From NCBI GenBank assembly GCA_041649475.1, contig JBAZNA010000001.1:197022-261021 (forward strand): a stretch of 64,000 bases of DNA, given 5' to 3'. The notes beneath the pieces were generated by a model that was given only the letters and a program-made list of their open reading frames with translations, had not been told where the DNA came from and did not search any database. This DNA is from Patescibacteria group bacterium. GTDB taxonomy: Bacteria > Patescibacteriota > Patescibacteriia > Magasanikbacterales > GWA2-37-8. A program made the translations under genes and the position numbers. Positions 1,337 through 57,026 of the stretch are shown here, piece by piece. The first letter of the stretch is position 1. Each line of letters opens with the position of its first letter.

Positions 1337-2704
1337 ATGATAACAATATCTCCAGGAATTTTTAAAGCATACGATATCAGGGGGGTTTATGAAGTGGAAT
1401 TGGATGAGGATTTGGCTTACCGGGTGGGCAAGGCGTTTGCGGAATTTATTAAGAAAGATGCCGGTAAAAACGACTTAACAGTCGCGGTCGGGCAAGATAT
1501 GAGAATTTCTTCGCCGACCTTGTTTGAAGCGGTGGTAAAAGGCATAACCGAACAGGGTGTTAATGTGGTGGATATTGGTTTGGTTTCCACGCCGACTTTT
1601 TATTTTGGCGTCAGCTTCTACGGTTATGACGGCGGTTTGCAGGTTTCGGCTTCGCACAATCCGGCAAAGTATAATGGTTTTAAAATGGTGCGGGCCAGGG
1701 CGGTGCCCATCAGCGGGGAAACCGGAATAATGGAAATCCGGGATATGGCGATTAAAAATGAGTTTGTCGCGGCGCCGGAAAAGGGAAATGTGACAAAGCG
1801 CGAAGGTGTTTTGGAGGAGCAAATAAAATTTGCTTTGCAGTATGTTGATCTCCAAAAAATAAAACCGTTTAAAATTGTCATTGACACGGCCAACGGCATG
1901 GGTGGGCCGATGATGGAAGAATTATTTAAACATTTGCCGTGTAAATTGGAAAAATTATATTTTGAATTGGATGGAACCTTCCCCAATCACGAGGCCGATC
2001 CGTTAAAAGAAGAAAACATGAAGGACTTGCAGAAGCGAGTACTTGAAACCAAAGCGGATTTGGGAATTTCTTTAGATGGCGACGCGGACAGATTATTTTT
2101 TGTTGATGATAAGGGCGTAACCATTGAGCCGGCCATGGTGCGCGGAATTTTGGCCAAGATATTTTTGCGGGATAATCCGGGCGCGAAGATTTGCTATGAC
2201 ATCCGACCGGGAAAAATTACCATTGATATGATTGAAGAGGGCGGGGGCGTGCCGATTGTCACCCGCGTCGGTCATTCTTTGATCAAAGAAAAAATGGCCG
2301 AGGTCGGTTCGGTATTCGCCGGGGAGTCATCCGGGCATTTCTTTTTGAAAATGCCGCACGGAATTTTTGAAGCGCCGGAAATTATGATTTTAAAGATTTT
2401 ACAGGAGTTGTCGGAGAGTGGCCAGAGTTTTAGCGAGTACACCGCGCCCCTGTATAAGTATTTTCATTCCGGTGAAATTAATTTTGAAGTGAAAGACAAA
2501 CAAGCGGTGTTTGATAAGTTGCGGGAAAAATACGGAGCGAATTTGCAGTATGATTTTGACGGTTTGTCATTCCAGTGGCCGGAGTGGTGGTTTAATGTTC
2601 GGGCAAGTAACACAGAGAATAAAATGCGTTTGAATTTGGAAGCGACTAGTGAAGAGATTATGAAAGAGAAAGTTATGGAAGTAAGTGGACTTATTAAATT
2701 TTAA
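1337..2704 (+). CDS. phosphomannomutase/phosphoglucomutase (alpha-D-phosphohexomutase family)
   Basis: 455 aa ORF with the active-site serine motif SASHNPAKYNGFK and the conserved ISLDGDADR and GESSGHFF motifs of the family. Confidence 0.85.
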   Translation: MITISPGIFKAYDIRGVYEVELDEDLAYRVGKAFAEFIKKDAGKNDLTVAVGQDMRISSPTLFEAVVKGITEQGVNVVDIGLVSTPTFYFGVSFYGYDGGLQVSASHNPAKYNGFKMVRARAVPISGETGIMEIRDMAIKNEFVAAPEKGNVTKREGVLEEQIKFALQYVDLQKIKPFKIVIDTANGMGGPMMEELFKHLPCKLEKLYFELDGTFPNHEADPLKEENMKDLQKRVLETKADLGISLDGDADRLFFVDDKGVTIEPAMVRGILAKIFLRDNPGAKICYDIRPGKITIDMIEEGGGVPIVTRVGHSLIKEKMAEVGSVFAGESSGHFFLKMPHGIFEAPEIMILKILQELSESGQSFSEYTAPLYKYFHSGEINFEVKDKQAVFDKLREKYGANLQYDFDGLSFQWPEWWFNVRASNTENKMRLNLEATSEEIMKEKVMEVSGLIKF

Positions 2705-2729
2705 TTTATTTATATTTAATTTTTAGAAT

Positions 2730-3035
2730 ATGGCGTATGCAGAAAAAAATTTAATAGATAAATTACAAGATGAGATTAGGAATAAGAAGGATAAACAAAT
2801 GGAGGGGTTACGCAGGGCTTTTGAAATTTCTTTTTGGAAATATTGGGATGATCATAGTGAATATCCTAATCTTAATAATGACCAGGATGTTAATCTTTAT
2901 CTTGAGGGCCGTCCAGATTTAAAAGCTGCTGTTTTTAAACTGGATTTGGTTTTGCCTAGAGTGAAAGAAATTGCTTTTGAAATTCTTGAGAATTTAAGGA
3001 AAACAGGGGTAAGAAAAGGTGCGAAGAAGAAATAA
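2730..3035 (+). CDS. hypothetical small protein
   Basis: 101 aa ORF in host-like composition with no recognisable motif. Confidence 0.4.
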   Translation: MAYAEKNLIDKLQDEIRNKKDKQMEGLRRAFEISFWKYWDDHSEYPNLNNDQDVNLYLEGRPDLKAAVFKLDLVLPRVKEIAFEILENLRKTGVRKGAKKK

Positions 3036-3162
3036 GAGTTAAACAATTTCTAAAAATATTTTTAGTGGCCATACCCACTGTTTCACTGTGGTGGGCAACT
3101 CCAACAACTTCGTAAAGTTTGCCTTTGTAGCGCTCGTATTTGCCTAATTTTAGCATAAATAT

Positions 3163-4047
3163 TTACGCCATCCCTCTTAATTTTTTGATTCTGTCTTCAA
3201 TCGGCGGATGAGTGGAGAAAAGATTGGAAACTTTTTTACCGCTAAACGGGCTTGCCAGAAATAAATGGGCAGTGGCCTGATTGGCGTGTGCCAATGGTTG
3301 ATTTTCAGCCGCAATTTTTTCCAAAGCCCGAGCCAAACCTTCGGGATAGCGGGTGAGCAATGATCCGGAAGCATCAGCCAAATACTCTCGCCGGCGGGAA
3401 ATAGCCAATTTTATCAGTTCGGCAATAATTGGAGATAAGATCGCCAAGATAATTCCCACCACCATAAAGATAATGCCGAGATCTCCGCCTTCGCGGTTGT
3501 TGTTTCTTCTCGGCAGCCAACGGCTTCGTAAAAAAATATTTGATAAAATCGCAATTGCTCCCACCATCACCGCCACCAAAGTCATGAAGCGAATGTCATA
3601 GTTCTTAACGTGGGAAAGTTCATGAGCGATTACGCCTTCCAATTCTACGCTTTCTAATTTTTCAATCGCGCCGCGGGTGATGGCAATGGTGGCCATGTCC
3701 GGTTTGCGGCCCGTGGCAAAAGCGTTGATGGCAGGATCTTCCATTATGTATACCTTTGGCACCGGCAAACCGGCAGTGATGCATAAATTTTCAACCAGAT
3801 GATACACATATGGATTTTCATCATGTTCAATCGGGTGGGCGCCGTTTGTCCAAAGCGCAATTTTGTCGCCCTGGAAATATGAAATCGCCGTCATGCCCAG
3901 AGAAAAAATAATCGCAAAGAAAACACCGCCATAACTTCCGGAACCGGAGGCCTGATCAAACACAAACCCCAAAGCAATGATGACCACAATAAAAATCATC
4001 ATCAAAATTATGGATTTTCGTTTGTTGGAATCTATCTCGTTATACAT
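3163..4047 (-). CDS. htpX: zinc metalloprotease HtpX (M48 family)
   Basis: N-terminal transmembrane segments and the HELSH zinc-binding HExxH motif. The size and layout are typical of HtpX, and it sits directly downstream of lemA on the same strand. Confidence 0.85.
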   Translation of the reverse strand: MYNEIDSNKRKSIILMMIFIVVIIALGFVFDQASGSGSYGGVFFAIIFSLGMTAISYFQGDKIALWTNGAHPIEHDENPYVYHLVENLCITAGLPVPKVYIMEDPAINAFATGRKPDMATIAITRGAIEKLESVELEGVIAHELSHVKNYDIRFMTLVAVMVGAIAILSNIFLRSRWLPRRNNNREGGDLGIIFMVVGIILAILSPIIAELIKLAISRRREYLADASGSLLTRYPEGLARALEKIAAENQPLAHANQATAHLFLASPFSGKKVSNLFSTHPPIEDRIKKLRGMA

Positions 4048-4062
4048 TTTATGTGTGGCCAG

Positions 4063-4614
4063 CTAGAATTTCACTTGCACGTTTTCCTTTTCCGCCGCAT
4101 CCGCCTGGAAGAAATCGTATTTTTTGAAATTCATCATGCCGGCAAAAATATTTGTCGGGAAGACCTGAATTTGGGTGTTGAAGTCGCGCACGTTGCCGTT
4201 GTAGAAGCGGCGGGAGGCCTGAATTTTATTTTCCGTATCGCTAATTTCACCTTGTAATTGCAAGAAATTCTGATTGGCTTTTAAGTCCGGGTAATTTTCA
4301 CTGACGGCAAACAAGGTTTTTAAGGTGCCTGATAATTGATTTTCCGCTTGTTCGCGTTCAGCCATTGAACCGCCTTTGGCCGACATAGCCGCGGTTCTGG
4401 CTTCAGTTAATTGAACCAAAGTGTCGTGTTCATGGGTCATGTAGCCCTTTACCGTTTCCACTAAATTCGGAATCAAGTCATAGCGGCGTTTCAATTGGAC
4501 GTCAATATCGCTAAAGGCCTCATCCACGCGGTTTTTTGACTTAATTAAACCGTTGTATATGGCTATAATCCAAAAAACGATCACGGCCACTATTGCCAAA
4601 ATTACCCAAAGCAT
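4063..4614 (-). CDS. lemA: LemA family protein
   Basis: 183 aa with an N-terminal transmembrane helix and a LemA-type sequence (NGLIKSKNRVDEAFSDIDVQLKRRYDLIPNLVETVKGY). LemA-HtpX pairing is a common operon. Confidence 0.85.
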   Translation of the reverse strand: MLWVILAIVAVIVFWIIAIYNGLIKSKNRVDEAFSDIDVQLKRRYDLIPNLVETVKGYMTHEHDTLVQLTEARTAAMSAKGGSMAEREQAENQLSGTLKTLFAVSENYPDLKANQNFLQLQGEISDTENKIQASRRFYNGNVRDFNTQIQVFPTNIFAGMMNFKKYDFFQADAAEKENVQVKF

Positions 4615-4727
4615 ATGATTAAGATTAAAATTAAGTTATATTTTCTGCCCGCAGGGCAGCTATTGGCTTTTTCGTGAGTTTATTATATGATATAGCAATA
4701 AAATAAGCAAGATTTTCTCTTTATTGT

Positions 4728-6026
4728 ATGATTACCCTATTAATCTTTTTGGCCATCTTGGCAATTTTGGTTTTATCCCATGAATTTGGGCATTTTGTTG
4801 CCGCGCGCCGAAGCGGGATGAAGGTTTATGAGTTTGGTTTTGGCTTTCCGCCAAGGTTATTTGGCATCCAACTGCTCAAAAGCAGAAAACCGGCTAAAAT
4901 TGGTGAAATTCAAGAAACAGATATAAAAATTGAAGATATAAAAACAGCGGACGGCCAGGAGGTTGTGACCGAAACAGTGACGACAGACACTAAGACAATA
5001 GTTCAAACCACGAAAAAGTGGCGTTTTATTTGGTGGAATAAGGATGTTGTACCTGAAGAAGGAGACAGCACGCTGGAACATGGCACGGTTTATTCTTTTA
5101 ATCTGATTCCCCTGGGCGGTTTTGTGCGTATCAAAGGTGAAGAAGGCGACGAAACAGGTCCGGATAGTTTTAATACGCAAAAAACTTGGAAAAAGGCCAT
5201 CACGCTGGTTGCCGGCGTGGCCATGAATGTGGTTTTAGCCGCGATTTTGCTTTCAATCGGGTTTATGACCGGCATACCGCAAGCGGTTGATGATTCTACG
5301 GTTGGAGTGAGAAACAGGCACGTGGAAATCGTCCAGGTTTTGCCGGGCAAGCCGGCCGAGCTGGCTGGTTTAAAAGCCGGCGATGAATTTTTAAAAATTG
5401 ATAATATAAATTCTCCCAGTTCAAAACAATTGCAGGATTATTTAAATGCCAATAAAGATAAAAATATTAATGTCGTTGTAAACCGGAATGGCCAGCTTAT
5501 TACAAAAGATATTCATCCAATTATTTATCCGGATACGGGCAAGGCGGGTTTGGGTGTGTCCATAGTTGATGTCGGCGTGGTTGGTTATCCGTGGTATAAA
5601 GCCATATATTATGGAATAATAACCACCGGATTTTATTTGAAAGAAATCGTGTTGGCGTTTTACGGTTTGATTAAAGGGCTCTTTGTCGGCGCGCCGGTGG
5701 GTGATGCTGTTTCCGGGCCGGTGGGCATTGCGGTTATGACCGGGCAAGTGGCTAAACTTGGTTTTGCTTATTTGTTAAATTTTACCGCCTTATTATCATT
5801 GAATTTGGCAATCATAAATATTTTGCCGATCCCGGCTTTAGATGGCGGTCGGTTGTTATTTCTGGTAATCAATAAATTTAAACGCAAGCAAATTAATCCC
5901 AAGCATGAACAGTTGGCGCATACCATCGGTTTTGCCCTGTTGATGCTTCTGGTGGTGGTGGTGACGGTAAAAGACATCGGCGCGTTTAGCGGTTCAATCG
6001 TGAACTTCTTTAAAAATTTATTTTAA
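4728..6026 (+). CDS. rseP: RseP-type site-2 protease (M50 family) with PDZ domain
   Basis: An HEFGHF zinc motif close to the N-terminus, multiple transmembrane segments, a central PDZ-like region and a C-terminal LDGG motif. Confidence 0.8.
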   Translation: MITLLIFLAILAILVLSHEFGHFVAARRSGMKVYEFGFGFPPRLFGIQLLKSRKPAKIGEIQETDIKIEDIKTADGQEVVTETVTTDTKTIVQTTKKWRFIWWNKDVVPEEGDSTLEHGTVYSFNLIPLGGFVRIKGEEGDETGPDSFNTQKTWKKAITLVAGVAMNVVLAAILLSIGFMTGIPQAVDDSTVGVRNRHVEIVQVLPGKPAELAGLKAGDEFLKIDNINSPSSKQLQDYLNANKDKNINVVVNRNGQLITKDIHPIIYPDTGKAGLGVSIVDVGVVGYPWYKAIYYGIITTGFYLKEIVLAFYGLIKGLFVGAPVGDAVSGPVGIAVMTGQVAKLGFAYLLNFTALLSLNLAIINILPIPALDGGRLLFLVINKFKRKQINPKHEQLAHTIGFALLMLLVVVVTVKDIGAFSGSIVNFFKNLF

Positions 6027-9607: not shown

Positions 9608-9994
9608 ATGATAGAAACTTCCAAAGATATTTTATACCTGGTCATCGCGTTTTGTGTTTTGTGGCTGACGGTTTTTCTCTGCTGGACGTTTTTCTACGTG
9701 GTGAAAATTTTAAAGAACACCAACCGGGTGGTTGAAGAATTTCGCTCGCGCCTGCAACTGCTAACTGAAACCATAAATTATGTGCGCGGCAAGGTGGAAA
9801 GCATTCATGCTTTGATTGGTTTAGCCGGCGGCAATGTAGCCAATGCCGTAAAAAATATCGTGAGCAAGAAAGCCAAAGAATGGGTTGATAGCGGTTCTAA
9901 AAAAATGAATACTTCAGCTAAAGACGCGGTGGACTTTGCGGTAAAAGCGACTGCAAAGGGCATGAGCAAGGTAGCAAAGAAGATTAGAAGATAA
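9608..9994 (+). CDS. hypothetical small membrane protein
   Basis: 128 aa with an N-terminal transmembrane helix and a Lys-rich C-terminus. It is preceded by an extended -10 (tgcTATAAT) and an AAGGAG ribosome-binding site, and followed by a terminator hairpin. Confidence 0.5.
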   Translation: MIETSKDILYLVIAFCVLWLTVFLCWTFFYVVKILKNTNRVVEEFRSRLQLLTETINYVRGKVESIHALIGLAGGNVANAVKNIVSKKAKEWVDSGSKKMNTSAKDAVDFAVKATAKGMSKVAKKIRR

Positions 9995-10008: not shown

Positions 10009-10033
10009 AGAGAGCCCACCCGGGCTCTTTTAA
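10009..10033 (+). terminator. intrinsic terminator hairpin agagcccacccgggctct followed by a T-tract
   Basis: Perfect GC-rich inverted repeat followed by ttttaag. Confidence 0.6.
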
Positions 10034-10046
10034 GTTGCCTCCTATC

Positions 10047-10075
10047 TTGACAAAAAAATATTTTTAGTGTATTCT
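10047..10075 (+). promoter_or_regulatory. sigma70-like promoter (TTGACA -17- TATTCT) driving GC-rich cassette A
   Basis: Consensus -35 TTGACA, a 17-nt AT-rich spacer and -10 tattct. A structured GC-rich leader with a strong GAAGGAG ribosome-binding site lies downstream. Confidence 0.5.
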
Positions 10076-10149
10076 TGGTGATTATTCCTTAGGTAAGGAA
10101 GCCCGGACCATTCCGGTTCGGGTATGATGATAGAGGAAGGAGAAAAAAG

Positions 10150-10497
10150 ATGGGAATGCGCGCGAAGGACTGGGAGGCGGCCCAGGCCGTTTTCTTGAAA
10201 GAGGCCGGTGCCGACCCTGACCCCGACGATTCGTGGACCGTAGTTCGGTCGCCGAGTTTGCAGGAGCTTCTGCTGGCAAAGGAGCAGGAGTTCCCGGTTG
10301 AGCTCGAGCTCTCCGACGGCCGCAAGATGACCGTGTTCGTCGAGGATATCAAGGACCCCGACGCGCACGGCGAAGTGGAGGTGTACGTAATGTACGTCGC
10401 CAACGGCAACCGGCGCCGGCGGTACCTGCACTTCACCCCCGACGTCTACGAGCCCAGGGTCAACGTCTACCCCGAGCCCAAGGAATCCGTGGGCTGA
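10150..10497 (+). CDS. hypothetical protein, compositionally foreign GC-rich cassette A (115 aa)
   Basis: ATG preceded by a GAAGGAGAAAAAAG ribosome-binding site. Codon third positions are strongly G/C-biased, and the first 60 nt count about 63% GC against about 28-40% in neighbouring genes. Its own promoter is upstream and an intrinsic terminator is downstream. No recognisable domain. Confidence 0.6.
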   Translation: MGMRAKDWEAAQAVFLKEAGADPDPDDSWTVVRSPSLQELLLAKEQEFPVELELSDGRKMTVFVEDIKDPDAHGEVEVYVMYVANGNRRRRYLHFTPDVYEPRVNVYPEPKESVG

Positions 10498-10520
10498 CCC
10501 CACTTCCTCCCTCGTCTCAC

Positions 10521-10549
10521 GCCCAAGCATCTGCTTGGGCCTTTTTTTG
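10521..10549 (+). terminator. intrinsic terminator gcccaagcatctgcttgggc + T7
   Basis: 9-bp GC stem followed by ctttttttg. Confidence 0.7.
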
Positions 10550-10587
10550 TTGATTTTGTTATGGCTTTCGGGTAAGATACGAGCACT

Positions 10588-13500
10588 ATGCCCGACTTTG
10601 TTCACCTCCATGTCCACAGCCATTATTCGCTTTTAGATGGCCTGCCAAAAATTGACGAGCTAGTTAAGCATGCCAAAAGTTTGGGCATGACTGCCCTTGC
10701 CCTCACCGATCATGGTAATATGTATGGCGCCATTGAGTTTTATGAGCGGTGTCAGAAAGAGGGAATAAAACCGATCATCGGCATGGAGGCATACTTGGCT
10801 CCGGGCAGTCGTTTTGATAAAAATCAAAATGACAAGTATTATCATCTGGTGTTGTTGGCTTTGGATTATACCGGTTATAGAAATTTGATGAAGCTGGCTT
10901 CGCTGGCTCATCTGGAGGGGTTCTATTACAAACCCCGTGTTGATAAAGAACTTCTAAAACAATATCATGAAGGTTTGGTTGCTTCATCTGCCTGTTTTGG
11001 CGGCGAGATTCCTTGGATTTTGCGCAAAGAAGATAATTTTGAGAAAGCCAAAAAAGTGGCGTTGGAATACGAAGAAATTTTTGGCAAAGGAAATTTTTAT
11101 CTGGAACTGCAGGACTTGCCGGGTTTGGAAGGTCAGATGGAGATGAATACAAAATTAATTAAGCTTTCCCAAGATACTGGCGTCCCGCTTATTGTCACCC
11201 GTGACGTGCATTATTTGAAACCGGAGGACGCCGAAGCCCAGGATATTTTAACCTGCATCCGCGACGGCCGGACTTTGGATGAACCCAATCGCCAGACCAT
11301 GAATGCGGTTGATTGTTCAATGGCTAGCGTCAAAGAAATCGCCGGCCGCTTTAAACATATTCCTGAAGCATTGGAGAACACGGTTAAGATTGCCGAAAGA
11401 GCGAATCTGGTTTTAGAACTTAATAAATGGCATTTTCCGCCTCTTGAGCTTCCGGTCGGGCAGACCGCCGACAGTTATTTGCGCGAGCAGGTTTATGAAA
11501 GATTGCCGAAGCTGTTGCAGATAACCGAGGAGGTGAAAAAAAGAGTTGACTATGAGTTGGAAATTATCGCCAAAAAAGGTTATTCTCCGTATTTTTTAAC
11601 AGTTGCCGATTATGTGCAGTATGCGCGCGACCACGGCATTGCCGAAACGACCAGGGGCTCGGCTGCTGGTTCAATCGTTTCTTACGCTATAGGAATCGTC
11701 ACTGTTAATCCGCTGTATTTCAAATTGCCGTTTGAAAGATTTTTAAATCCATTCCGTCCCAGCCCGCCGGATATTGACGCGGACTTCGCCGACGACCGCC
11801 GCGACGACATGATTGCTTATGTCACGCAAAAATATGGTGCGGACAAAGTGGCGCAGATTATTACCTTCGGAACGATGATGGCGCGCGGAGCGGTGCGCGA
11901 TGTGGGCCGAGCGCTGGGCTATACCTATTCTTTTTGCGATCAGATTTCAAAAATGATTCCTTTTGGCGCGCAGGGTTTTCACATGAATATTGCCAAAGCC
12001 ATGGAGCTGGAGCCGGATTTAAAAAAATTATACGATCAAAATCCGCAAGCCCACCGTTTATTGGATTTGGCGCAAAAAGTGGAGGGCTGCGCCCGACACA
12101 CTTCCATACACGCGGCCGGAGTGGTGATTTCACCGACGCCGCTTACGGATTTTACTCCGGTTCAGCGCGAAACCGGCGGTGAGAGAATTACCACTCAATA
12201 TGAAATGCACGCGGTGGAGGCGGCTGGAGTTTTGAAAATGGACTTTTTGGGGATCCGCAATTTATCTATTTTGGGTCATGCCGTGGAAATTATAGAAAAA
12301 ACAACCGGCCAGAAAATTGATATCTACAAATTGCCCTGGGATGACAAAAAAACCTATGAAATGCTGGCGCGCGGTGAAACTATCGGTGTGTTCCAGCTTT
12401 CCGGATCTGGCATGACCAGATATTTGAAAGAATTAAAGCCGGCCAGCATCTTTGATATTATGGCCATGGTGGCACTGTTTCGCCCCGGGCCAATGGAATC
12501 AATTCCCGAATATATAAAAAGAAAAAATCATCCGGAACTGATTGAATATCTTGATCCGCGCATGGAAAATTATCTTGATCAGTCCCTGGGCTTGATTGTT
12601 TATCAGGACGACGTTTTGCTTACGGCTATAAATTTGGCCGGATACAATTGGGAGGAAGCGGATAAATTCAGAAAAGCGATGGGCAAGAAAATTCCGGAAG
12701 AAATGGCCAAGCAGAAAGAGAAATTTTTTAAGGGCTGCCGTGAATTCGGGCATTTGTCCGAAGCAAAAATCAACACCCTGTGGGAACGCATTGAGCCGTT
12801 TGCCGCTTATGGTTTTAACAAGGCCCATGCCTGCAGTTATGGAGTTGTGGCCTATCAGACCGCCTATCTGAAAGCTAATTTTCCGGTGCAGTATATGACC
12901 GCGATTTTGATTGCGGAAAGCGGCGACATTGATAAAGTGCCGGAAATTATTCATGAGTGCGAGAGAATCGGCATAAAGGTCTTACCGCCCGATGTTAATG
13001 AAAGTTTTAAAAATTTCGCCATGATTTCGCCGGAAGACGGATCCGAGCCGCACATTAGGTTCGGTTTAAACGGCATAAAAAATCTGGGCGAGCATATTGC
13101 CGAAGTGATTTACCGCGAACGCAAAGAACATGGCACGTATAAAGACCTGCAGGATTTGCTCACGCGTGTAAATGATAAGGATTTAAACAAAAAGTCCCTG
13201 GAAAGTTTGGCTAAATGTGGCGCGCTTGATTGTTTTGGCCATGACCGGGGATTGCTTTTGGCCAACACGGACAACCTTTTGGGTTTTGTCAGGCAGATGC
13301 ATGAGAAAACCCAATCAAACCAGAATTCGCTTTTTTCAGGCACAACGATTGATTTGTCCGCCAAAGTTCAGCTTAATCCGGCGCCCCTGGCCGATGAAGC
13401 CGACAAGCTGATTTGGGAAAAAGAATTGCTGGGACTCTTCGTCACTTCCCATCCATTTAAGTATTTTGAAAAAATTATGAACGGCGTGCTGACACCGATT

Positions 13501-15117: not shown

Positions 15118-15564
15118 TTATGGCCAGTTGAGTTCCGCCGGCATAGGCCAATCACTGGCGTCGAAACTCACGAATCCCGGCGTCCATTTGAACTTGGACG
15201 CTTCTCCCGGACCAGAAGTGCCCGTGAGCTCGTGAATTTTTTTAGAACTGAGCACCTTGAGCGGCGACATCTCTTTCGGCTCCGGGCTATCGATAGTGGC
15301 CTGGAGAGAATAACCAATCCCTTTCGTGGGATTGTAGAGGAGAAGTTGCGTGGCGACTTTTGCCCGTTTGTGCTCAAGGCAGTCCCACACCATCTTCAAG
15401 AGCGGCTTCTCCACTACGACCACAGGTTCATTATCCTCTGCAGTCAGAGCTGGGAATACACCCATCAGTCCGTGTTCGATCAGCAGTAGGTAACCGTACC
15501 GAAGCTGCCATCCGCTCAGATCCTTTTCGAAGATGCTTCCCAGCGCCGGTCCTTGTTTGCTCAT
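15118..15564 (-). CDS. hypothetical protein, GC-rich cassette B (148 aa)
   Basis: Start chosen at MSKQGPALG because it is preceded by TTGGAGGAAACC-ATG (GGAGG ribosome-binding site). The coding sequence is GC-rich, unlike the host. It lies 33 nt downstream of the 3' end of tRNA-Met on the same strand and is followed by a GC hairpin. No recognisable domain. Confidence 0.55.
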   Translation of the reverse strand: MSKQGPALGSIFEKDLSGWQLRYGYLLLIEHGLMGVFPALTAEDNEPVVVVEKPLLKMVWDCLEHKRAKVATQLLLYNPTKGIGYSLQATIDSPEPKEMSPLKVLSSKKIHELTGTSGPGEASKFKWTPGFVSFDASDWPMPAELNWP

Positions 15565-15597
15565 GGTTTCCTCCAAGATCGAGATCGTTTTCCCGAG

Positions 15598-18073: not shown

Positions 18074-18400
18074 TCACAGGACCACTTCTTCGTAGTAGTC
18101 GGCCCGCTCGTGGCTAGCGTAGGGGCTTGATTTGGCATCCTTGAGCGCAGCTGCGGCGAACGGTTCGTCTATGGTGACCTCGGCAACGTTCTCGCACTTG
18201 GCGATCAACAGCTGACAACCATCACAGCCGAATCCGGTCACGGTTGCCAGAACCAGCGCCTCCTTGATCTTCGGTACCCGGCCCTCTTTGCGGATGGCTT
18301 CGGCCACATCGGCCGCGTTTTCTCCACCGCAGTCGGTCCAGAACTTGAAAACAACCTCATCACCCTTGCGCACACTAACGAGTCCGGTTTTTCCGTGCAT
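18074..18400 (-). CDS. hypothetical protein, GC-rich cassette C (108 aa, contains a GCDGC Cys pair)
   Basis: The ATG is preceded by a perfect AAGGAGG ribosome-binding site that overlaps the TAA stop of the upstream FAD oxidoreductase gene. The coding sequence is strongly GC-rich. It has no promoter of its own and ends at the terminator at 18021-18052. Confidence 0.55.
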   Translation of the reverse strand: MHGKTGLVSVRKGDEVVFKFWTDCGGENAADVAEAIRKEGRVPKIKEALVLATVTGFGCDGCQLLIAKCENVAEVTIDEPFAAAALKDAKSSPYASHERADYYEEVVL

Positions 18401-25928: not shown

Positions 25929-26282
25929 TTAGGTGTCAACCGTCTCCACCGGAGGGTTGGGCACTGTTGGCCCCCAGAGAGGGACGAATTCCGTGCTCTG
26001 GAAGTTCTTGCGACACAACTCTTCAAGACCAGGGGTATCGCCATCGTAGATGACCCGGGAGGCCGTAATCACGGCCCGATCCTGCTTGGACCCGAACCCC
26101 ATCTGGGCGGCCAAGTTGTAGGCGTTCCTAGCCGAAGGGGCTTCACCGTTTTTTTGCACTTCCGCGCGAATTGCGTCAGCAAAACGCTTGGTGAGATTGC
26201 CGCCGCGGCCAACCACAACTTTCATCAAAACCACGTCGCCTCGGAAAACGATGACCATTCCCGGAACAGCAGTCGTGGACAT
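25929..26282 (-). CDS. hypothetical protein, GC-rich cassette D (117 aa)
   Basis: The ATG is preceded by AAGGAGG-attctcc. The coding sequence is GC-rich. It has its own consensus promoter and terminator. No recognisable domain. Confidence 0.55.
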   Translation of the reverse strand: MSTTAVPGMVIVFRGDVVLMKVVVGRGGNLTKRFADAIRAEVQKNGEAPSARNAYNLAAQMGFGSKQDRAVITASRVIYDGDTPGLEELCRKNFQSTEFVPLWGPTVPNPPVETVDT

Positions 26283-29580: not shown

Positions 29581-29922
29581 CTAGCCGGCGGCGGAAGCGG
29601 CGATGGGGGCGATCTTGGGCTGGATGTCGATCACGGGGATCGGCTCGGGCAGACCGTCGAAGCGCTGGCGGAGCCAGTCGATCTCGGGCTCCGAGGCCTC
29701 GCCCATGAAGATCTCGATGTAGAACGTCCCCCTGATGAGGCCCTCGTACTTCAGCTTGAAGCCGGGGATCTCGTCGTCGAAGTCGGCCTTGTGCGGCCTG
29801 TTGACGTACCTGTTGAAGTCGTTGAGCGAGCAGTACCTGACGCTGCCGTCCACGAACTGGATCCGTACGGCCCTTGTCTGCAAGGTCGTGTCCGGGAACG
29901 TCATCAGCTTCTGGATCGGCAT
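29581..29922 (-). CDS. hypothetical protein, GC-rich cassette E (113 aa from MPIQKL)
   Basis: Start chosen at the methionine preceded by AAGGAGagggag. The ORF-track ORF extends to 29994 with an Arg-rich low-complexity N-terminus that is probably untranslated leader. The coding sequence is GC-rich, and both its 5' leader (about 105 nt) and its 3' UTR (about 90 nt) are long and GC-rich. Confidence 0.5.
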   Translation of the reverse strand: MPIQKLMTFPDTTLQTRAVRIQFVDGSVRYCSLNDFNRYVNRPHKADFDDEIPGFKLKYEGLIRGTFYIEIFMGEASEPEIDWLRQRFDGLPEPIPVIDIQPKIAPIAASAAG

Positions 29923-30037
29923 CTCCCTCTCCTTGGGACTACGAGCTCGTGTGACCATCTTGTTATGCCTCCCTTGTTTCCGTGTTGGGCCCAATGCCCC
30001 TAAACTTGTTGGCCTTGTCCAGGCCGTGATGGGCTAA

Positions 30038-41855: not shown

Positions 41856-41884
41856 TTGACCAATTGTCTTTTTTATGCTAAAGT
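41856..41884 (+). promoter_or_regulatory. sigma70-like promoter TTGACC -17- TAAAGT for cassette F
   Basis: ttgacc aattgtcttttttatgc taaagt, followed by the leader hairpin cctgccagagaaaggcagg and an AAGGAGG ribosome-binding site. Confidence 0.5.
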
Positions 41885-41931
41885 ATGTGGTTCCTGCCAG
41901 AGAAAGGCAGGTCAGAAAGGAGGCCTCTCGG

Positions 41932-42312
41932 ATGACACGGGTCATGAGTTTGATGGCTTTCTACGCGACTTATCGTCTCTTAAAGGTCGCGTACCGTGCG
42001 ACCGAGAGACAGCTTAGGCTATTCTTCGTCCCCAAGCCGGGGTGCGAGGGGGCCTACGAGGTGGATGAGCAAATCTTCGCCAAGGTTCGGACGCTCATCG
42101 TCAATTCCAGGTCGTTTCAGACCGAAATCTACCCGCTGAACGCCAGTGACGTGGGGGAAGATTTCCGCCTTGGCGACCAGGATTTCACCGGCTCGGTGAT
42201 GGTCTGGCTGAAGGAAGTAGATCCTTTAGACGCACTGTTTACCGACAGAATCAAGGAGGTTGTGTTCGGAGAGGAGAAAGAGTATCGCTTTCAGTGCGGT
42301 TCCCGCAACTAG
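41932..42312 (+). CDS. hypothetical protein, GC-rich cassette F (126 aa from MTRVMSL)
   Basis: Start chosen at the methionine 8 nt after the AAGGAGG ribosome-binding site. The ORF-track start at 41875 lies inside the leader. The coding sequence is GC-rich, and a GC hairpin follows the stop codon. Confidence 0.55.
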   Translation: MTRVMSLMAFYATYRLLKVAYRATERQLRLFFVPKPGCEGAYEVDEQIFAKVRTLIVNSRSFQTEIYPLNASDVGEDFRLGDQDFTGSVMVWLKEVDPLDALFTDRIKEVVFGEEKEYRFQCGSRN

Positions 42313-44286: not shown

Positions 44287-45174
44287 CTAAAGTTTGATAC
44301 TTTTGAGAGATATTTTTAAATATAAATTTGAAGTCTTGTTTATTAAGAATTTTAATGTTTTGGGCAATACCCTGTCTAATAATGCAAGAAACGAGATAGT
44401 ATATATTAAGGTTAAAAAATTATTTTTAAGTATCGTGATTATAAAATTTGGTTTATAATCCATCTTCCAGAATATTATATAAAGAATAAAATGTAATATG
44501 CAGAAGAATGCTATTGGCCAGAATGGAGCTTTAAAACCAAGTAGATCCCATTTTTCTGGCTCACCGAATTGGTTATTACTTTCGGGCGAGTTATAAATTT
44601 TATCATTCTTCATAATCCTTGACCAAATATCAGTGAATTTGGTTCCAGATATTATAAGTAGTAACCATTGAAAGCAGTCAGATATAAATTTTATAATATC
44701 GGTTATAATTACCCTCCAAAATAATAATTTTAACCTAAGTTTAAAACCCTTTAGTGGCATGGTTGGTTTTGTATGAAGCAAGTATAGCTCGTCGAGTAAC
44801 ATATTTGCTGTTATTTCTTTATTTTTTTTATAAAATTTGTTCAAGATAACATCATAAAAATACTCATCATTTGAAGTAAAATCTATCGGGCCAGTAACTT
44901 TTTTTATTTTATCTTGGTTACTCAATGATATGTAAGATCCTTTGTCATCTTCTTTAAGTTTTCCATAGCTAACCCTTATGGATAGGGGTTTAATGTTGCC
45001 ATCCTTCAGTACATTTTCATTACTGATGTAAATATAGAATATTGATCCCCAATCGTCTGAACCCATTTTTCTAATTATACTAAAGCCAAATTTGCAATCT
45101 TTTAAAGGAGTGAGATTCAAAAATAATCCATTAGTTCCTATATTAAAATCTTTTATGAAATCTTGATTTTCCAT
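44287..45174 (-). CDS. hypothetical membrane protein encoded by an AT-rich insert between miaB and miaA
   Basis: 295 aa. The N-terminal half of about 190 aa is soluble and Lys/Asn/Ile-rich. The C-terminal part carries about three predicted transmembrane helices. GC is visibly lower than in the flanking genes. Confidence 0.5.
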   Translation of the reverse strand: MENQDFIKDFNIGTNGLFLNLTPLKDCKFGFSIIRKMGSDDWGSIFYIYISNENVLKDGNIKPLSIRVSYGKLKEDDKGSYISLSNQDKIKKVTGPIDFTSNDEYFYDVILNKFYKKNKEITANMLLDELYLLHTKPTMPLKGFKLRLKLLFWRVIITDIIKFISDCFQWLLLIISGTKFTDIWSRIMKNDKIYNSPESNNQFGEPEKWDLLGFKAPFWPIAFFCILHFILYIIFWKMDYKPNFIITILKNNFLTLIYTISFLALLDRVLPKTLKFLINKTSNLYLKISLKSIKL

Positions 45175-54261: not shown

Positions 54262-55680
54262 TTATAGGGAGCCGGTTTTTCTGATGACAACAAAAGGTGT
54301 TTTAATTAGAATTATGAGATCTAAAAATAAACTCCAGTTTTCTATATAAAATGTGTCCAGCTTTATTTCTTCTTCATAGCTTAAATTGCTGCGTCCGGAA
54401 ATTTGCGCCAAGCCGGTGATACCGGGTTTGATTTCTAAAACTATTTTATGCTTTCTTTCGTAATTTTCAACCTCCCGGGGCTGGTGCGGACGCGGGCCGA
54501 CCAAACTCATTTCACCTTTGAACACATTAAAGAATTGTGGCAATTCGTCTATGCTCCAGCGGCGGATAAACCGGCCAAACGGAGTGACACGCGGGTCATT
54601 TTTGATTTTGTAAATCGGACCGTTTTTTATGCTTTGTTTTTTGATCAGTTCCTGTTCTTTGGCCAAAGCCACGGTGGAAGCTTTTTTGCCAAACTGAATG
54701 CCGTTTGAATCTTTTTGATACATTGATCGAAATTTTAGCGTGAAGAATTTTTTATCGGCTTTGCCGACTCTTTCATTTTTGTAAATCACCGGCCGGCCGG
54801 TTTCAATTAAAATTATTAAAGAGATAATTAAATAAATTGGAGAGAGGATAATTATAAAAAATATACTGCCGATAATATCTATTAGTCGTTTGAAAATTCT
54901 GCCCCAACCCGTCAGCCGCGTTAAGCGCAGTTCAATAATCGGAATGCCGGTGATGGTGGAAACGGCCATGTTGGTGGAAATGGTTGAAAACAAATCAGCT
55001 GAATATTTGAAAGCGATGTGATGTTCGTTGGCAAAATCAATTGCTTCCAACGCCTCTTTTTCATTAGCTTTCGGATCCGTAAAAATTATTTCGTCCGGTT
55101 TTAGTTTTAAAATTGTTGGTTCGCTGGCGACATCAAAACCATCGTAGGTGGCCACCACTTTATAGCCAAATGACTTGTTGAGTAGTGATTGCTTGATTTC
55201 CTGGCCGATAATTTCTTTGCCGATAATAATTGTGCGGCGTAGTCCTACGCCGGCTTTGTGTAGCCAGATTTTTAAACCGGCGGTGAGGATGCGCCCCAGT
55301 GACACAAAGATAATGGCTAAAATCCAACCGACCAAAACCAAAAATCTGGAATCAAATTTTTGCAAGGTGAAAAAAACATAAATGGTGATGCCGGCAAAAC
55401 CGGTGGCGGTGGCCATGACCACTCGGGTGAGATCGCGGGCGAGCTTGCGGTTGGGGTTGGTGCTATATAACCCGGATAAAGCAAAAATAATAATCCAGGC
55501 CGCGGCTGTAAGCAAGACCAATGGCCAGTATCTTTGCCAGGAAAGATTAAACAAAACCGGCCGGATGGCTTTGGCAAAATCAGCAAAGCGAAGCGTGTAG
55601 GCAGTAAAGCCGGCCAGTATCAGCAGGGCAAAGTCAAGAGGAAGTTGGAGTAAGGTAAAAAAGAGTTCAAATTTTTTCAT
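54262..55680 (-). CDS. polyprenyl-phosphate glycosyl-1-phosphate transferase (bacterial sugar transferase, WbaP/CpsE-like)
   Basis: True start placed at MKKFELFF (55680). It has N-terminal transmembrane helices and a C-terminal sugar-transferase domain (PQFFNVFKGEMSLVGPRP). The ORF-track extension to 56025 runs into cassette G and is rejected. Confidence 0.8.
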   Translation of the reverse strand: MKKFELFFTLLQLPLDFALLILAGFTAYTLRFADFAKAIRPVLFNLSWQRYWPLVLLTAAAWIIIFALSGLYSTNPNRKLARDLTRVVMATATGFAGITIYVFFTLQKFDSRFLVLVGWILAIIFVSLGRILTAGLKIWLHKAGVGLRRTIIIGKEIIGQEIKQSLLNKSFGYKVVATYDGFDVASEPTILKLKPDEIIFTDPKANEKEALEAIDFANEHHIAFKYSADLFSTISTNMAVSTITGIPIIELRLTRLTGWGRIFKRLIDIIGSIFFIIILSPIYLIISLIILIETGRPVIYKNERVGKADKKFFTLKFRSMYQKDSNGIQFGKKASTVALAKEQELIKKQSIKNGPIYKIKNDPRVTPFGRFIRRWSIDELPQFFNVFKGEMSLVGPRPHQPREVENYERKHKIVLEIKPGITGLAQISGRSNLSYEEEIKLDTFYIENWSLFLDLIILIKTPFVVIRKTGSL

Positions 55681-55734
55681 AGTTGTGGGCGCGGTGCGCT
55701 TAGGTTGAGTATATTTTACGCCAACTGCCCAACA

Positions 55735-55763
55735 TTGACAAGAGAGCTGTTTTAGTGTTAATT
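55735..55763 (+). promoter_or_regulatory. sigma70-like promoter TTGACA -17- TTAATT for cassette G
   Basis: ttgaca agagagctgttttagtg ttaatt, followed by a leader of about 70 nt and an AAGGAG ribosome-binding site 7 nt before the ATG. Confidence 0.45.
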
Positions 55764-55838
55764 TAACGTGCTGTGGCGAAACCATTCTGGCCAAGCCCGA
55801 CAGCGTCTGTAAACACGGTCGTATAAAGGAGACAAAAC

Positions 55839-56504
55839 ATGGCGACCGCAAAACAGATTCCGTTTTTGATGGGAAGGTTGGTGGAGCATCAGTTTTACTT
55901 CTGTGCTTTGTCCACCGCAAGCGCCACGTGGGCGAGCCAAAACCCGAAAGACGCCATTGCCTTGTGCGTGGCGGCGATCGAGAATCGCCAAAAGGAGCGT
56001 CAGTCCGACCCGGCGCCTTCGCCACTCCTCACCTTGGTCGGTGCCGTCGTGATCTGGCTGGCCGTGAGGTTCGTTGCCAGTGAACACCTGGTGAAGAATA
56101 CCGAGAAGAACGCGCCGGTGAAGATTTCCTACATCTTCGATAAGGTCACCGTGTGGTTCCAGGGCAAGATCGAGGAGCGGGTCGAGGGCGAGATGGCTCT
56201 GTGCTGCCATACCCTGAACTCCGACTCGGACGATAACCTCATCATCAACCAGCTCGGCGGCGAGACCAAGGCCGAGACCGCCCTTGCCGAGGTCTTTGCC
56301 TGCTTGGAGAAGCAACCCAACGGCGAGGATGGTGCGCTACTCACTAACGGCCACGCGAACATCTTCTATGTTCGCAACACCGAAGGTGTGTTGTGCGTGA
56401 TCCAAGTGATCTGGCGCGGTGACGGTTGGACCTTCTACACCCGTTCGGTCGGTTCTCTGGACACATGTACCGAGGGCCGCCGGGTGTTCTCCCGCGCCGC
56501 ATAG
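55839..56504 (+). CDS. hypothetical protein, GC-rich cassette G (221 aa)
   Basis: GC-rich coding sequence with its own promoter and ribosome-binding site, followed by an intrinsic terminator. No recognisable domain. There is one hydrophobic segment (LLTLVGAVVIWLAV). Confidence 0.55.
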   Translation: MATAKQIPFLMGRLVEHQFYFCALSTASATWASQNPKDAIALCVAAIENRQKERQSDPAPSPLLTLVGAVVIWLAVRFVASEHLVKNTEKNAPVKISYIFDKVTVWFQGKIEERVEGEMALCCHTLNSDSDDNLIINQLGGETKAETALAEVFACLEKQPNGEDGALLTNGHANIFYVRNTEGVLCVIQVIWRGDGWTFYTRSVGSLDTCTEGRRVFSRAA

Positions 56505-56565: not shown

Positions 56566-56594
56566 TTGACAAAACCCCTCATTTGTGCTATAGT
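56566..56594 (+). promoter_or_regulatory. consensus-like promoter TTGACA -17- TATAGT for rnpB
   Basis: ttgaca aaacccctcatttgtgc tatagt, lying about 7 nt upstream of the RNase P RNA 5' end. Confidence 0.6.
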
Positions 56595-56600
56595 TAACCC

Positions 56601-56994
56601 ATTCATAGCGGATGATCGAGCCGACTTAGTCGGCTAGGAAAGTCCGAACACCCAAGATGGCAGTGGGTAACGCCCACCGCTACGGTGGCAACGCCGTGGT
56701 TGGGAAAGTGGCACAGAGACAATTCTAACCCCGACAAGCTCGGGGTAAAAGGTGAAAAGTGTATGGGGGATTTGGTTCTCGAGACCAAAGCTACTATACT
56801 CGGCTGATAGCAATATCAGTTCGTGCTAAACCCTGCCTGGTGCAAGAGCAGCGTTTCGCGGCGCAAAACCGCGGTTCGAAAAGTTCGCTCGCTAGAACGC
56901 GTTAGCAATAACGCGTCCAGATAAATGATCGTCACCTCGCCCCATTTTTAAACAAAATGGTGCGGAGCACAAAATTCGGCTTATAGCTATGAAT
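56601..56994 (+). ncRNA. rnpB: RNase P RNA (bacterial type A)
   Basis: P1 pairing ttcatagc/gctatgaa. P2 gagccga...tcggctt and a P3 hairpin ccgacttagtcgg. P4 5' strand AGGAAAGTCCG and 3' strand ACAAAATTCGGCTTA. Conserved GGGTAACGCC, GTGGCACAGAGACAAT and GGTAAAAGGTGAAAAGTG blocks match the E. coli M1 RNA pattern. Confidence 0.8.
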
Positions 56995-56995
56995 A

Positions 56996-57026
56996 AAAAA
57001 GACGACCCGCAAGGGCCGTCTTTTAA
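56996..57026. terminator. bidirectional intrinsic terminator (gacgacccgcaagggccgtc) flanked by A6 and T4
   Basis: aaaaaagacgacccgcaagggccgtctttt. It ends rnpB (+) and the convergent 57040-58578 gene (-). Confidence 0.65.

Follow-up and report, generated by a model that had tools for sequence, protein, structure and literature searches.

Two of the described systems closest to the locus presented here serve as a starting point. The phage 'moron', defined on HK97 and HK022, is extra DNA with respect to related genomes that carries its own promoter and terminator and differs in guanine plus cytosine (GC) content (PMC3594210). Bacterial ORFans are short, species-restricted genes without homologues that are missing at the syntenic site of relatives (PMC13012023, PMC12315717, PMC3514957), and the origin of such orphan genes is still debated (PMC12315717, PMC13012023). 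Here we analyzed a stretch of 64,000 nt (the window; 43.5% GC overall) of contig JBAZNA010000001.1, whose host is a member of Candidatus Magasanikbacteria in the candidate phyla radiation, and we focused on cassette A, a GC-rich module between a small membrane-protein gene and dnaE whose single open reading frame (ORF) we call ORF A. We consider it probable that cassette A is a recent, horizontally acquired single-gene transcription unit, moron-like in design and strictly orphan, that sits in a gap running from a terminator to a promoter.

Like a moron, cassette A has its own promoter, which by sequence match alone reaches 10/12 of the consensus, and its own factor-independent terminator (10521-10548). 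Its GC content of 0.635 is unlike the 0.43-0.46 of its neighbours, and it represents extra DNA compared with relatives (593 versus 86-142 bp) between two undisturbed genes. On the contrary, it is found among the housekeeping genes of a bacterial chromosome and outside any phage or prophage genome, and searches of 50,697 phage records and of IMG/VR detected no phage relative. Filing cassette A as a phage moron was thus rejected, as four features of morons are present and phage residence is not. Cassette A fits the known class of horizontally acquired orphan genes, and ORF A shares with ORFans each of the traits listed above. ORFans of bacteria typically exceed their genome in A+T content (PMC3514957), whereas cassette A and its siblings in the window are ~15-20 points richer in G+C; also unlike typical ORFans, these cassettes are complete insulated transcription units, several of them within 64 kb. 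A literature search on GC-rich orphan genes in Patescibacteria returned nothing on this pattern.

The elements of cassette A are the following:
10033-10549, + strand: whole cassette A insert, ~510 bp, delimited by comparing the membrane-gene/dnaE gap with that of relatives
10047-10075, + strand: putative sigma-70-type promoter, with TTGACA at 10047-10052, a 17-nt spacer and TATTCT at 10070-10075; consensus score 10/12
10082-10149, + strand: predicted 5' leader, ~68 nt
10085-10100, + strand: leader hairpin 1, UUCCUUagguAAGGAA
10101-10123, + strand: leader hairpin 2, adjoining hairpin 1, GCCCGGACCauuccGGUUCGGGU
10133-10142, + strand: Shine-Dalgarno (SD) sequence GAGGAAGGAG, its last base 7 nt before the ATG at 10150
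10150-10497, + strand: ORF A (NCBI WC526_01050, 'hypothetical protein'), 115 amino acids, 13.2 kDa, with TGA at 10495-10497
10498-10549, + strand: 3' untranslated region (UTR) with intrinsic terminator T2, made of the stem-loop GCCCAAGCatctGCTTGGGC at 10521-10540, a C and seven Ts at 10542-10548

A previous sequence-only reading had proposed this order of promoter, structured leader, GC-rich ORF and terminator, and all of its elements were recovered at or near the positions given: the TTGACA box with its 17-nt spacer and tattct -10 element, the ribosome-binding site in front of the ORF, and the terminator with its T-run directly upstream of the dnaE promoter, which begins at 10550. The GC hairpins announced for the leader are there, but the leader measures ~68 nt and not ~75 nt. 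The protein has the predicted 115 residues and is acidic as stated (isoelectric point 4.65, 23 Asp+Glu versus 14 Lys+Arg), while the description as Pro-rich holds only mildly (9 Pro); it contains no Cys and, by eye, neither a hydrophobic N-terminus nor a membrane-spanning stretch.

ORF A is protein-coding on the + strand, because its codon-position GC, the SD sequence and terminator on the same strand, and a confident fold obtained for the sense product only all say so. Along the locus, GC goes from 0.36-0.38 in the promoter and early leader to 0.60-0.68 at 10150-10550 and then to ~0.45 beyond, in agreement with the GC-rich ORF of the sequence-only reading. ORF A itself (63.5% GC) has a GC of 0.68/0.37/0.85 at first, second and third codon positions (GC1/2/3), which is a coding signature typical of a high-GC organism, and its GC3 lies 6.3 standard deviations above the mean of the window's 43 native genes (0.46 +/- 0.06). 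Two antisense ORFs, of 193 and 115 amino acids, overlap the region; GC-rich DNA leaves many reading frames open. Single-sequence AlphaFold2 gave for ORF A a best predicted local distance difference test (pLDDT) score of 78.8 and a predicted template modelling (pTM) score of 0.67, and for the 115-residue antisense ORF, used as control, 45.1 and 0.15 with no secondary structure. In the predicted fold of ORF A, the N-terminal helix packs on a six-stranded antiparallel sheet and is followed by a short strand, a further helix and five longer strands; an RRRR patch sits in a predicted hairpin. WC526_01050 is very probably a real, intact and foldable protein gene and not an ORF artefact of GC-rich DNA.

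We also looked at whether the promoter follows a pattern of this genome. The motif TTGACA-N16-18-TANNNT occurs at 11 sites in the window versus 1.73 expected, and none of 100 shuffles reaches 11; some of these sites lie just 5' of four GC-rich cassettes and of the RNase P RNA (site at 56566), so that this promoter pattern appears to be in real use here. Several TTGACA-class sites share a T(T/A)GTG element directly before the -10 box, and cassette A is among them, with TTAGTG just 5' of its -10 as in the native promoters of this genome. At the other end of the unit, the T2 stem has 8 bp, 6 of them G-C pairs, and begins 23 nt past the ORF stop, and the -35 box of dnaE begins one base after the T2 T-run.

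The leader has a minimum free energy (MFE) of -21.4 kcal/mol with a z-score of -3.0 against shuffles, consistent with the structure proposed for it. Two near-isoenergetic folds were found: in the first (-31.2 kcal/mol) UUCCUU is paired with the AGGAAG of the SD sequence, and in the second (-30.5 kcal/mol) UUCCUU is paired locally with AAGGAA and the SD is free. This two-fold model comes from one sequence, to which covariation cannot be applied. No Rfam family was reached at gathering score, nor did one match even at E <= 10; the best sub-threshold hits were weak, mostly to terminator-like small RNA models and far under the cut-offs. A known riboswitch or cis-regulatory leader was therefore discarded for lack of a matching Rfam covariance model. 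The 3' UTR also carries CUUCCUCCCUC, complementary to the SD region (10126-10139 versus 10503-10516); the two pair in the MFE fold of the full transcript, possibly by chance.

The comparison with relatives supports an insertion. The flanks of cassette A are as follows:
9608-9994: small membrane-protein gene with a weak DUF948-like match, left neighbour of cassette A
10011-10031, + strand: terminator T1, AGAGCCCacccGGGCTCT, with stem AGAGCCC/GGGCTCT, loop ACCC and tail TTT, read from the sequence
10550-10590, + strand: native dnaE promoter and start, with TTGATT at 10550-10555, 17 nt, TAAGAT at 10573-10578 and ATG at 10588

A scan with the DnaE N-terminus, taking one genome per species, yielded 80 loci (numbered with L), the closest of which are Candidatus Magasanikbacteria with 59-86% identity across the first 200 DnaE residues. 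In these relatives, as in the window, the membrane-protein gene adjoins dnaE. The gap between the two genes measures 86-106 bp in L003, L005, L011, L012, L015, L017 and L019, and 142 bp in L010; the site is likewise empty in the metagenome contigs L082 and L084, with gaps in the same 86-106 bp range, and apparently in L088, as estimated from a partial alignment. This short gap is AT-rich and holds one terminator, 1-5 nt and then the dnaE promoter. In the window the gap is 593 bp, ~510 bp more than in relatives. The dnaE promoter is nearly base-for-base alike in L017 (TTGATTTTGTTGTTTCTTTGGGGTAAGAT), L021 (TTGATTTTGTTATGGAGATAGGGTAAACT) and the window (TTGATTTTGTTATGGCTTTCGGGTAAGAT), with the ATG 9 nt further on. 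As relatives' dnaE promoter is intact in the window at 10550-10578, we infer that the ~510 bp came in as one unit. The self-contained module between native signals of the sequence-only reading is thus borne out by an empty site that has the same dnaE promoter and a single terminator. Conservation of that promoter (TTGATTttgtt...GGTAAGAT) was also seen across the lineage, at 10550-10590 in the window and at ~5960-6003 in L003, L012, L017 and L019.

The left boundary of the insert is T1 and the right boundary, outside the insert, is the dnaE promoter. The left junction falls at ~10033-10040, just past the T1 tail, and the right one at ~10541-10549, in the T-run preceding TTGATT; these edges are loose by ~10 nt, and possibly by one terminator. 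The gap has 2 terminators in the window versus 1 in relatives. T1 stands as far from the membrane-gene stop codon as the single terminator of relatives does, while the spacing of T2 to the dnaE -35 is also the usual one. Either could be the ancestral terminator; whichever it is, the other arrived together with promoter, leader and ORF. In the terminator scan the T1 hairpin was reported for the - strand alone. When metagenomes were scanned with the membrane protein, no relative exceeded 74% identity, and the insert edges could therefore not be sharpened. Only 9 nt, with no SD, separate the dnaE -10 from its ATG, so that the dnaE mRNA is probably leaderless. The immediate neighbours are housekeeping genes, with a site-2 protease, pheS and pheT upstream (Pfam matches) and dnaE and tsaD downstream.

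DNA resembling cassette A was found neither elsewhere in the window nor in ~100 related loci. At the same site, four other loci carry unrelated modules of the same design, with a TTGACA promoter, an SD sequence and a GC-elevated ORF:
L013, 4220-4700: gap insert
L014, 5330-5850: gap insert
L018, 1480-2600: gap insert
L023, 5253-5990: gap insert

An intrinsic terminator is present in L013, L014 and L023, those checked, and one of the four modules lies in the opposite orientation. Other relatives have a PHP-domain-like gene or membrane proteins in the gap, the site being highly variable. Therefore, considering such varied and unrelated inserts, the site between membrane gene and dnaE is permissive or a hot spot.

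We also noticed in several relatives hairpin-forming repeats (GTCATTCYGA...GGATGACA), resembling miniature inverted repeats, between the dnaE promoter and its ATG:
L002, ~5550-5680: hairpin repeats
L004, ~5880-5990: hairpin repeats
L016, ~5770-5960: hairpin repeats
L021, ~5840-5990: hairpin repeats

In L018, a small ORF at 3355-3705 (- strand) has by eye the look of an Avd-type four-helix bundle, and a reverse-transcriptase-like ORF in two frames, also recognized by eye, lies at 3711-4654 (+ strand), adjoining a 293-residue GC-rich ORF; together these ORFs suggest a diversity-generating retroelement. ORF A was considered as the target of such an element, and no template-like repeat of it was found within the window.

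No homologue of ORF A was found in ~15 billion proteins overall. A word-indexed search of 5.8 billion clusters returned only the protein itself, and an exhaustive phmmer search of 1.84 billion representatives returned the protein and two long tandem-repeat proteins, which were rejected because many weak per-repeat matches sum to a misleading E-value. No match was obtained in Pfam (to E <= 10), PHROG, NCBIfam or PADLOC (none of its defence families at E <= 1), nor by tblastn in the 50,697 phage records and 72,556 plasmids, nor in a scan of IMG/VR, and the product has no convincing fold match. As there is no homologue, no tree could be built, and foreign origin is read from the composition and the empty site only.

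Taking these results together, we propose how cassette A might work. RNA polymerase would start near 10082 from a near-consensus promoter of this genome's own pattern, and the transcript would end at T2. The 68-nt leader may switch between a form in which UUCCUU is paired with half of the SD and one in which the SD is freed, possibly tuning translation. The product would be a 13-kDa acidic cytoplasmic protein, for which binding a partner seems likelier than catalysis, a guess made by analogy with other small accessory proteins. T2 would halt the transcript one base before the dnaE -35, and dnaE mRNA would still be made from its own promoter; by preserving the use of that promoter, T2 would make the insertion harmless to an essential gene. 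In this proposal both transcription and translation are inferred from the sequence alone. That an AT-rich promoter precedes a GC-rich body suggests that the unit was assembled in, or passed through, an element adapted to this lineage before landing at this site.

Several observations weigh against a recent horizontal acquisition. No donor or homologue turned up in any search, so that horizontal origin depends on base composition and on the unit being missing from related genomes. A simple transfer in one step from a high-GC donor does not account for the promoter part, which is AT-rich and resembles native ones. The five AlphaFold2 models of ORF A spread from 55.6 to 78.8 in pLDDT. The nearest relatives compared share only ~80% amino acid identity in DnaE, so that neither the age nor the precise limits of the insertion are tightly fixed. 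Finally, two sibling cassettes, B and C, are GC-rich across species, which could reflect selection for GC-rich sequence instead of foreign origin.

These siblings belong to a set of GC-rich ORFs that we found in the window:
18074-18400, - strand: cassette B, GC-rich small ORF coupled to the gene upstream
25929-26282, - strand: cassette C, GC-rich small ORF with a TTGACA promoter of its own, an SD and an intrinsic terminator
29581-29958, - strand: cassette D, GC3 0.93, with the same three signals as cassette C
55839-56504, + strand: cassette E, GC3 0.78, likewise with these three signals
15118-15576, - strand: milder GC-rich ORF
41875-42312, + strand: milder GC-rich ORF

GC3 ranges from 0.62 to 0.93 across cassettes B-E and the two milder ORFs, and none of these six has a Pfam match. 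Cassettes B-E, all four annotated by NCBI as 'hypothetical proteins', gave no PHROG, NCBIfam or convincing PADLOC match, and the sibling cassettes have no viral relatives in IMG/VR. Cassettes B and C are paralogous, with 39% identity over 57 amino acids. A profile built from the two retrieved syntenic orthologues from AT-rich contigs of related genomes (L093 5001-5321, L096 981-1337 and L099 1186-1512), with 72-76% amino acid identity and a GC of 0.57-0.63 in flanks of 0.36-0.48. The ratio of nonsynonymous to synonymous substitution rates (dN/dS) of these orthologues is 0.27-0.35, and the orthologue of C has a nearly unchanged promoter and leader. Such dN/dS values, together with the synteny and the kept promoter and leader, argue that such modules can be genuine genes on which selection acts. 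As GC3 is 0.67-0.75 in B and C versus 0.78-0.93 in the unique A, D and E, the data fit B and C being older imports that partly drifted toward host composition, that is, repeated import followed by amelioration.

In the dnaE-centred loci, GC-rich coding-like ORFs were found in the Magasanikbacteria set only and not in loci of other candidate phyla. Eight such ORFs of relatives were scanned and none passed a Pfam cut-off, one of them having sub-threshold phosphoribosyltransferase matches. A further GC-rich ORF lies in L093 at 2647-3366 (- strand; 239 amino acids, GC 0.62, GC3 0.83, no Pfam match), with neighbours of GC 0.40-0.51. In the window, the class A RNase P RNA (175 bits; 56566-56999, + strand) starts ~50 nt past the cassette E terminator and has its own TTGACA-17-TATAGT promoter. 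The mechanically called start of the ORF at 54262-56025 (- strand) overlaps cassette E by ~190 nt; this sugar-transferase-like gene probably begins further inside, near MKKFELFF. At 44287-45174 (- strand), a 295-residue ORF with no Pfam match is an outlier toward low GC, at only 28%.

The siblings invite a broader reading, which we hold only tentatively and consider rather unlikely: cassette A would be the youngest case of a lineage-specific process by which Magasanikbacteria repeatedly install foreign high-GC genes as insulated single-gene units, each made of a native-style TTGACA promoter, an SD, the ORF and a terminator, in harmless gaps between a terminator and a promoter beside housekeeping genes. 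The sources could be hosts, prey or unsampled elements, perhaps through DNA uptake, and some imports, such as the B/C family, would then be kept under purifying selection.

We then weighed the other explanations of cassette A. A native gene, or one formed at this very site, with a high GC upheld by selection or an origin by de novo birth, seems to us improbable. A donor was found for none of the five cassettes, the promoter follows the native pattern, and the B/C orthologues stay GC-rich in AT-rich genomes at 72-76% identity, all of which speaks for a native gene. However, relatives' gap of 86-106 bp is AT-rich and holds no precursor sequence, the combination of GC3 0.85 and GC2 0.37 needs long coding evolution under GC pressure, and nothing similar exists in the window or the ~100 related loci.

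The modular design and the variation of the site between relatives could also mean that a defined mobile element carried the unit, be it an integron cassette, a miniature transposon or what is left of a prophage, and a short inverted repeat, ACAAAAAAA/TTTTTTTGT, is found near both ends. This repeat is however of low complexity, being formed by the A-run of the promoter spacer and the T-run of the terminator, and apart from a possible 3-4 nt TTG there is no target-site duplication. Terminal repeats and target-site duplications were thus discarded as low-complexity or at chance level, including a 12-nt near-repeat, TTCGGGTATGAT/TTCGGGTAAGAT, of which ~0.5 are expected by chance by our own estimate. 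Cassette A resembles an integron cassette in being a single small ORF, often of unknown function in such cassettes, as a movable unit. Unlike one, it carries a promoter, and an ordinary intrinsic terminator takes the place of an attC site: the 3' end of ORF A shows only the 20-nt terminator hairpin and no extended imperfect palindrome. Also unlike an integron array, the GC-rich cassettes lie 8-26 kb apart among housekeeping genes, although intI itself was not searched for. The missing attC, the own promoter and the scattering of the cassettes rule out an integron cassette. As the unit is single copy between housekeeping genes (pheS and pheT on one side, dnaE and tsaD on the other), and phage, plasmid and IMG/VR searches found no match, we regard mobile-element cargo as an improbable origin.

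GC-rich intergenic islands in AT-rich genomes often encode structured RNAs, and cassette A resembles them as a sharp GC-rich island flanked by promoter and terminator. The whole predicted transcript folds well beyond shuffles (z-score -4.39), and the RNase P RNA is another GC-rich island of the window (56600-56999). A structured non-coding RNA in place of a protein is nevertheless very improbable. The ORF A region alone reaches z-scores of only -1.74 (+ strand) and -2.23 (- strand), and as it folds little beyond shuffles, the value of the transcript stems largely from the leader and terminator hairpins. In contrast to RNA islands, cassette A has three-base GC periodicity, an ATG correctly spaced from its SD, a confident protein fold and, as said, no RNA family match.

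We likewise give very little credence to ORF A being left over from a larger gene, such as one for the pyruvate carboxylase of a high-GC organism, of whose tetramerisation domain it would be the sheet. Residues 49-109 of ORF A align with residues 1015-1071 of Staphylococcus aureus pyruvate carboxylase in a phmmer search of PDB sequences (E = 0.014, 17-19 bits), and pyruvate carboxylases also come out on top of a Foldseek search of the ORF A model against PDB (E ~0.015-0.03). At full-database scale this match is non-significant and missing from the exhaustive search list, and no Pfam family, PF02436 included, matches at E <= 10; the assignment to this domain was rejected. Moreover, ORF A opens behind its SD at the earliest start codon that an in-frame stop allows, its own stop codon leads on to the terminator, and its predicted fold is compact along the whole length. 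The possibility raised by the sequence-only reading, that the protein is the C-terminal fragment of a larger disrupted gene, is therefore not supported, with no significant homologue pointing to such a gene.

An assembly or binning chimera, which the sharp compositional break and a gene known from one organism only could evoke, is hardly credible, as the locus is identical in the independent Logan assembly of run SRR8542065, the junctions yield a working terminator-promoter-SD-ORF-terminator order, similar modules are found in metagenome-assembled genomes produced by other teams, and other samples hold B and C in conserved synteny.

In conclusion, a recent acquisition of cassette A as a single-gene unit remains the probable explanation, and the locus allows reading directly the insertion site, the empty site of relatives, the intact promoter of the neighbour and a foreign codon signature not yet ameliorated, while sibling modules of differing apparent ages share the same window. 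The ORF A product, without a family or a convincing fold counterpart, is a candidate for structural and interaction studies. Several GC-rich units in one lineage, some of them retained under selection, are the more interesting lead. If the pattern is genome-wide, successive stages could be followed in Magasanikbacteria, from newly imported genes (A, D and E) to those retained under selection (B and C), and if the process of repeated import is true, reduced-genome symbionts would be an unusually clean system in which to follow how orphan genes arrive and become established.

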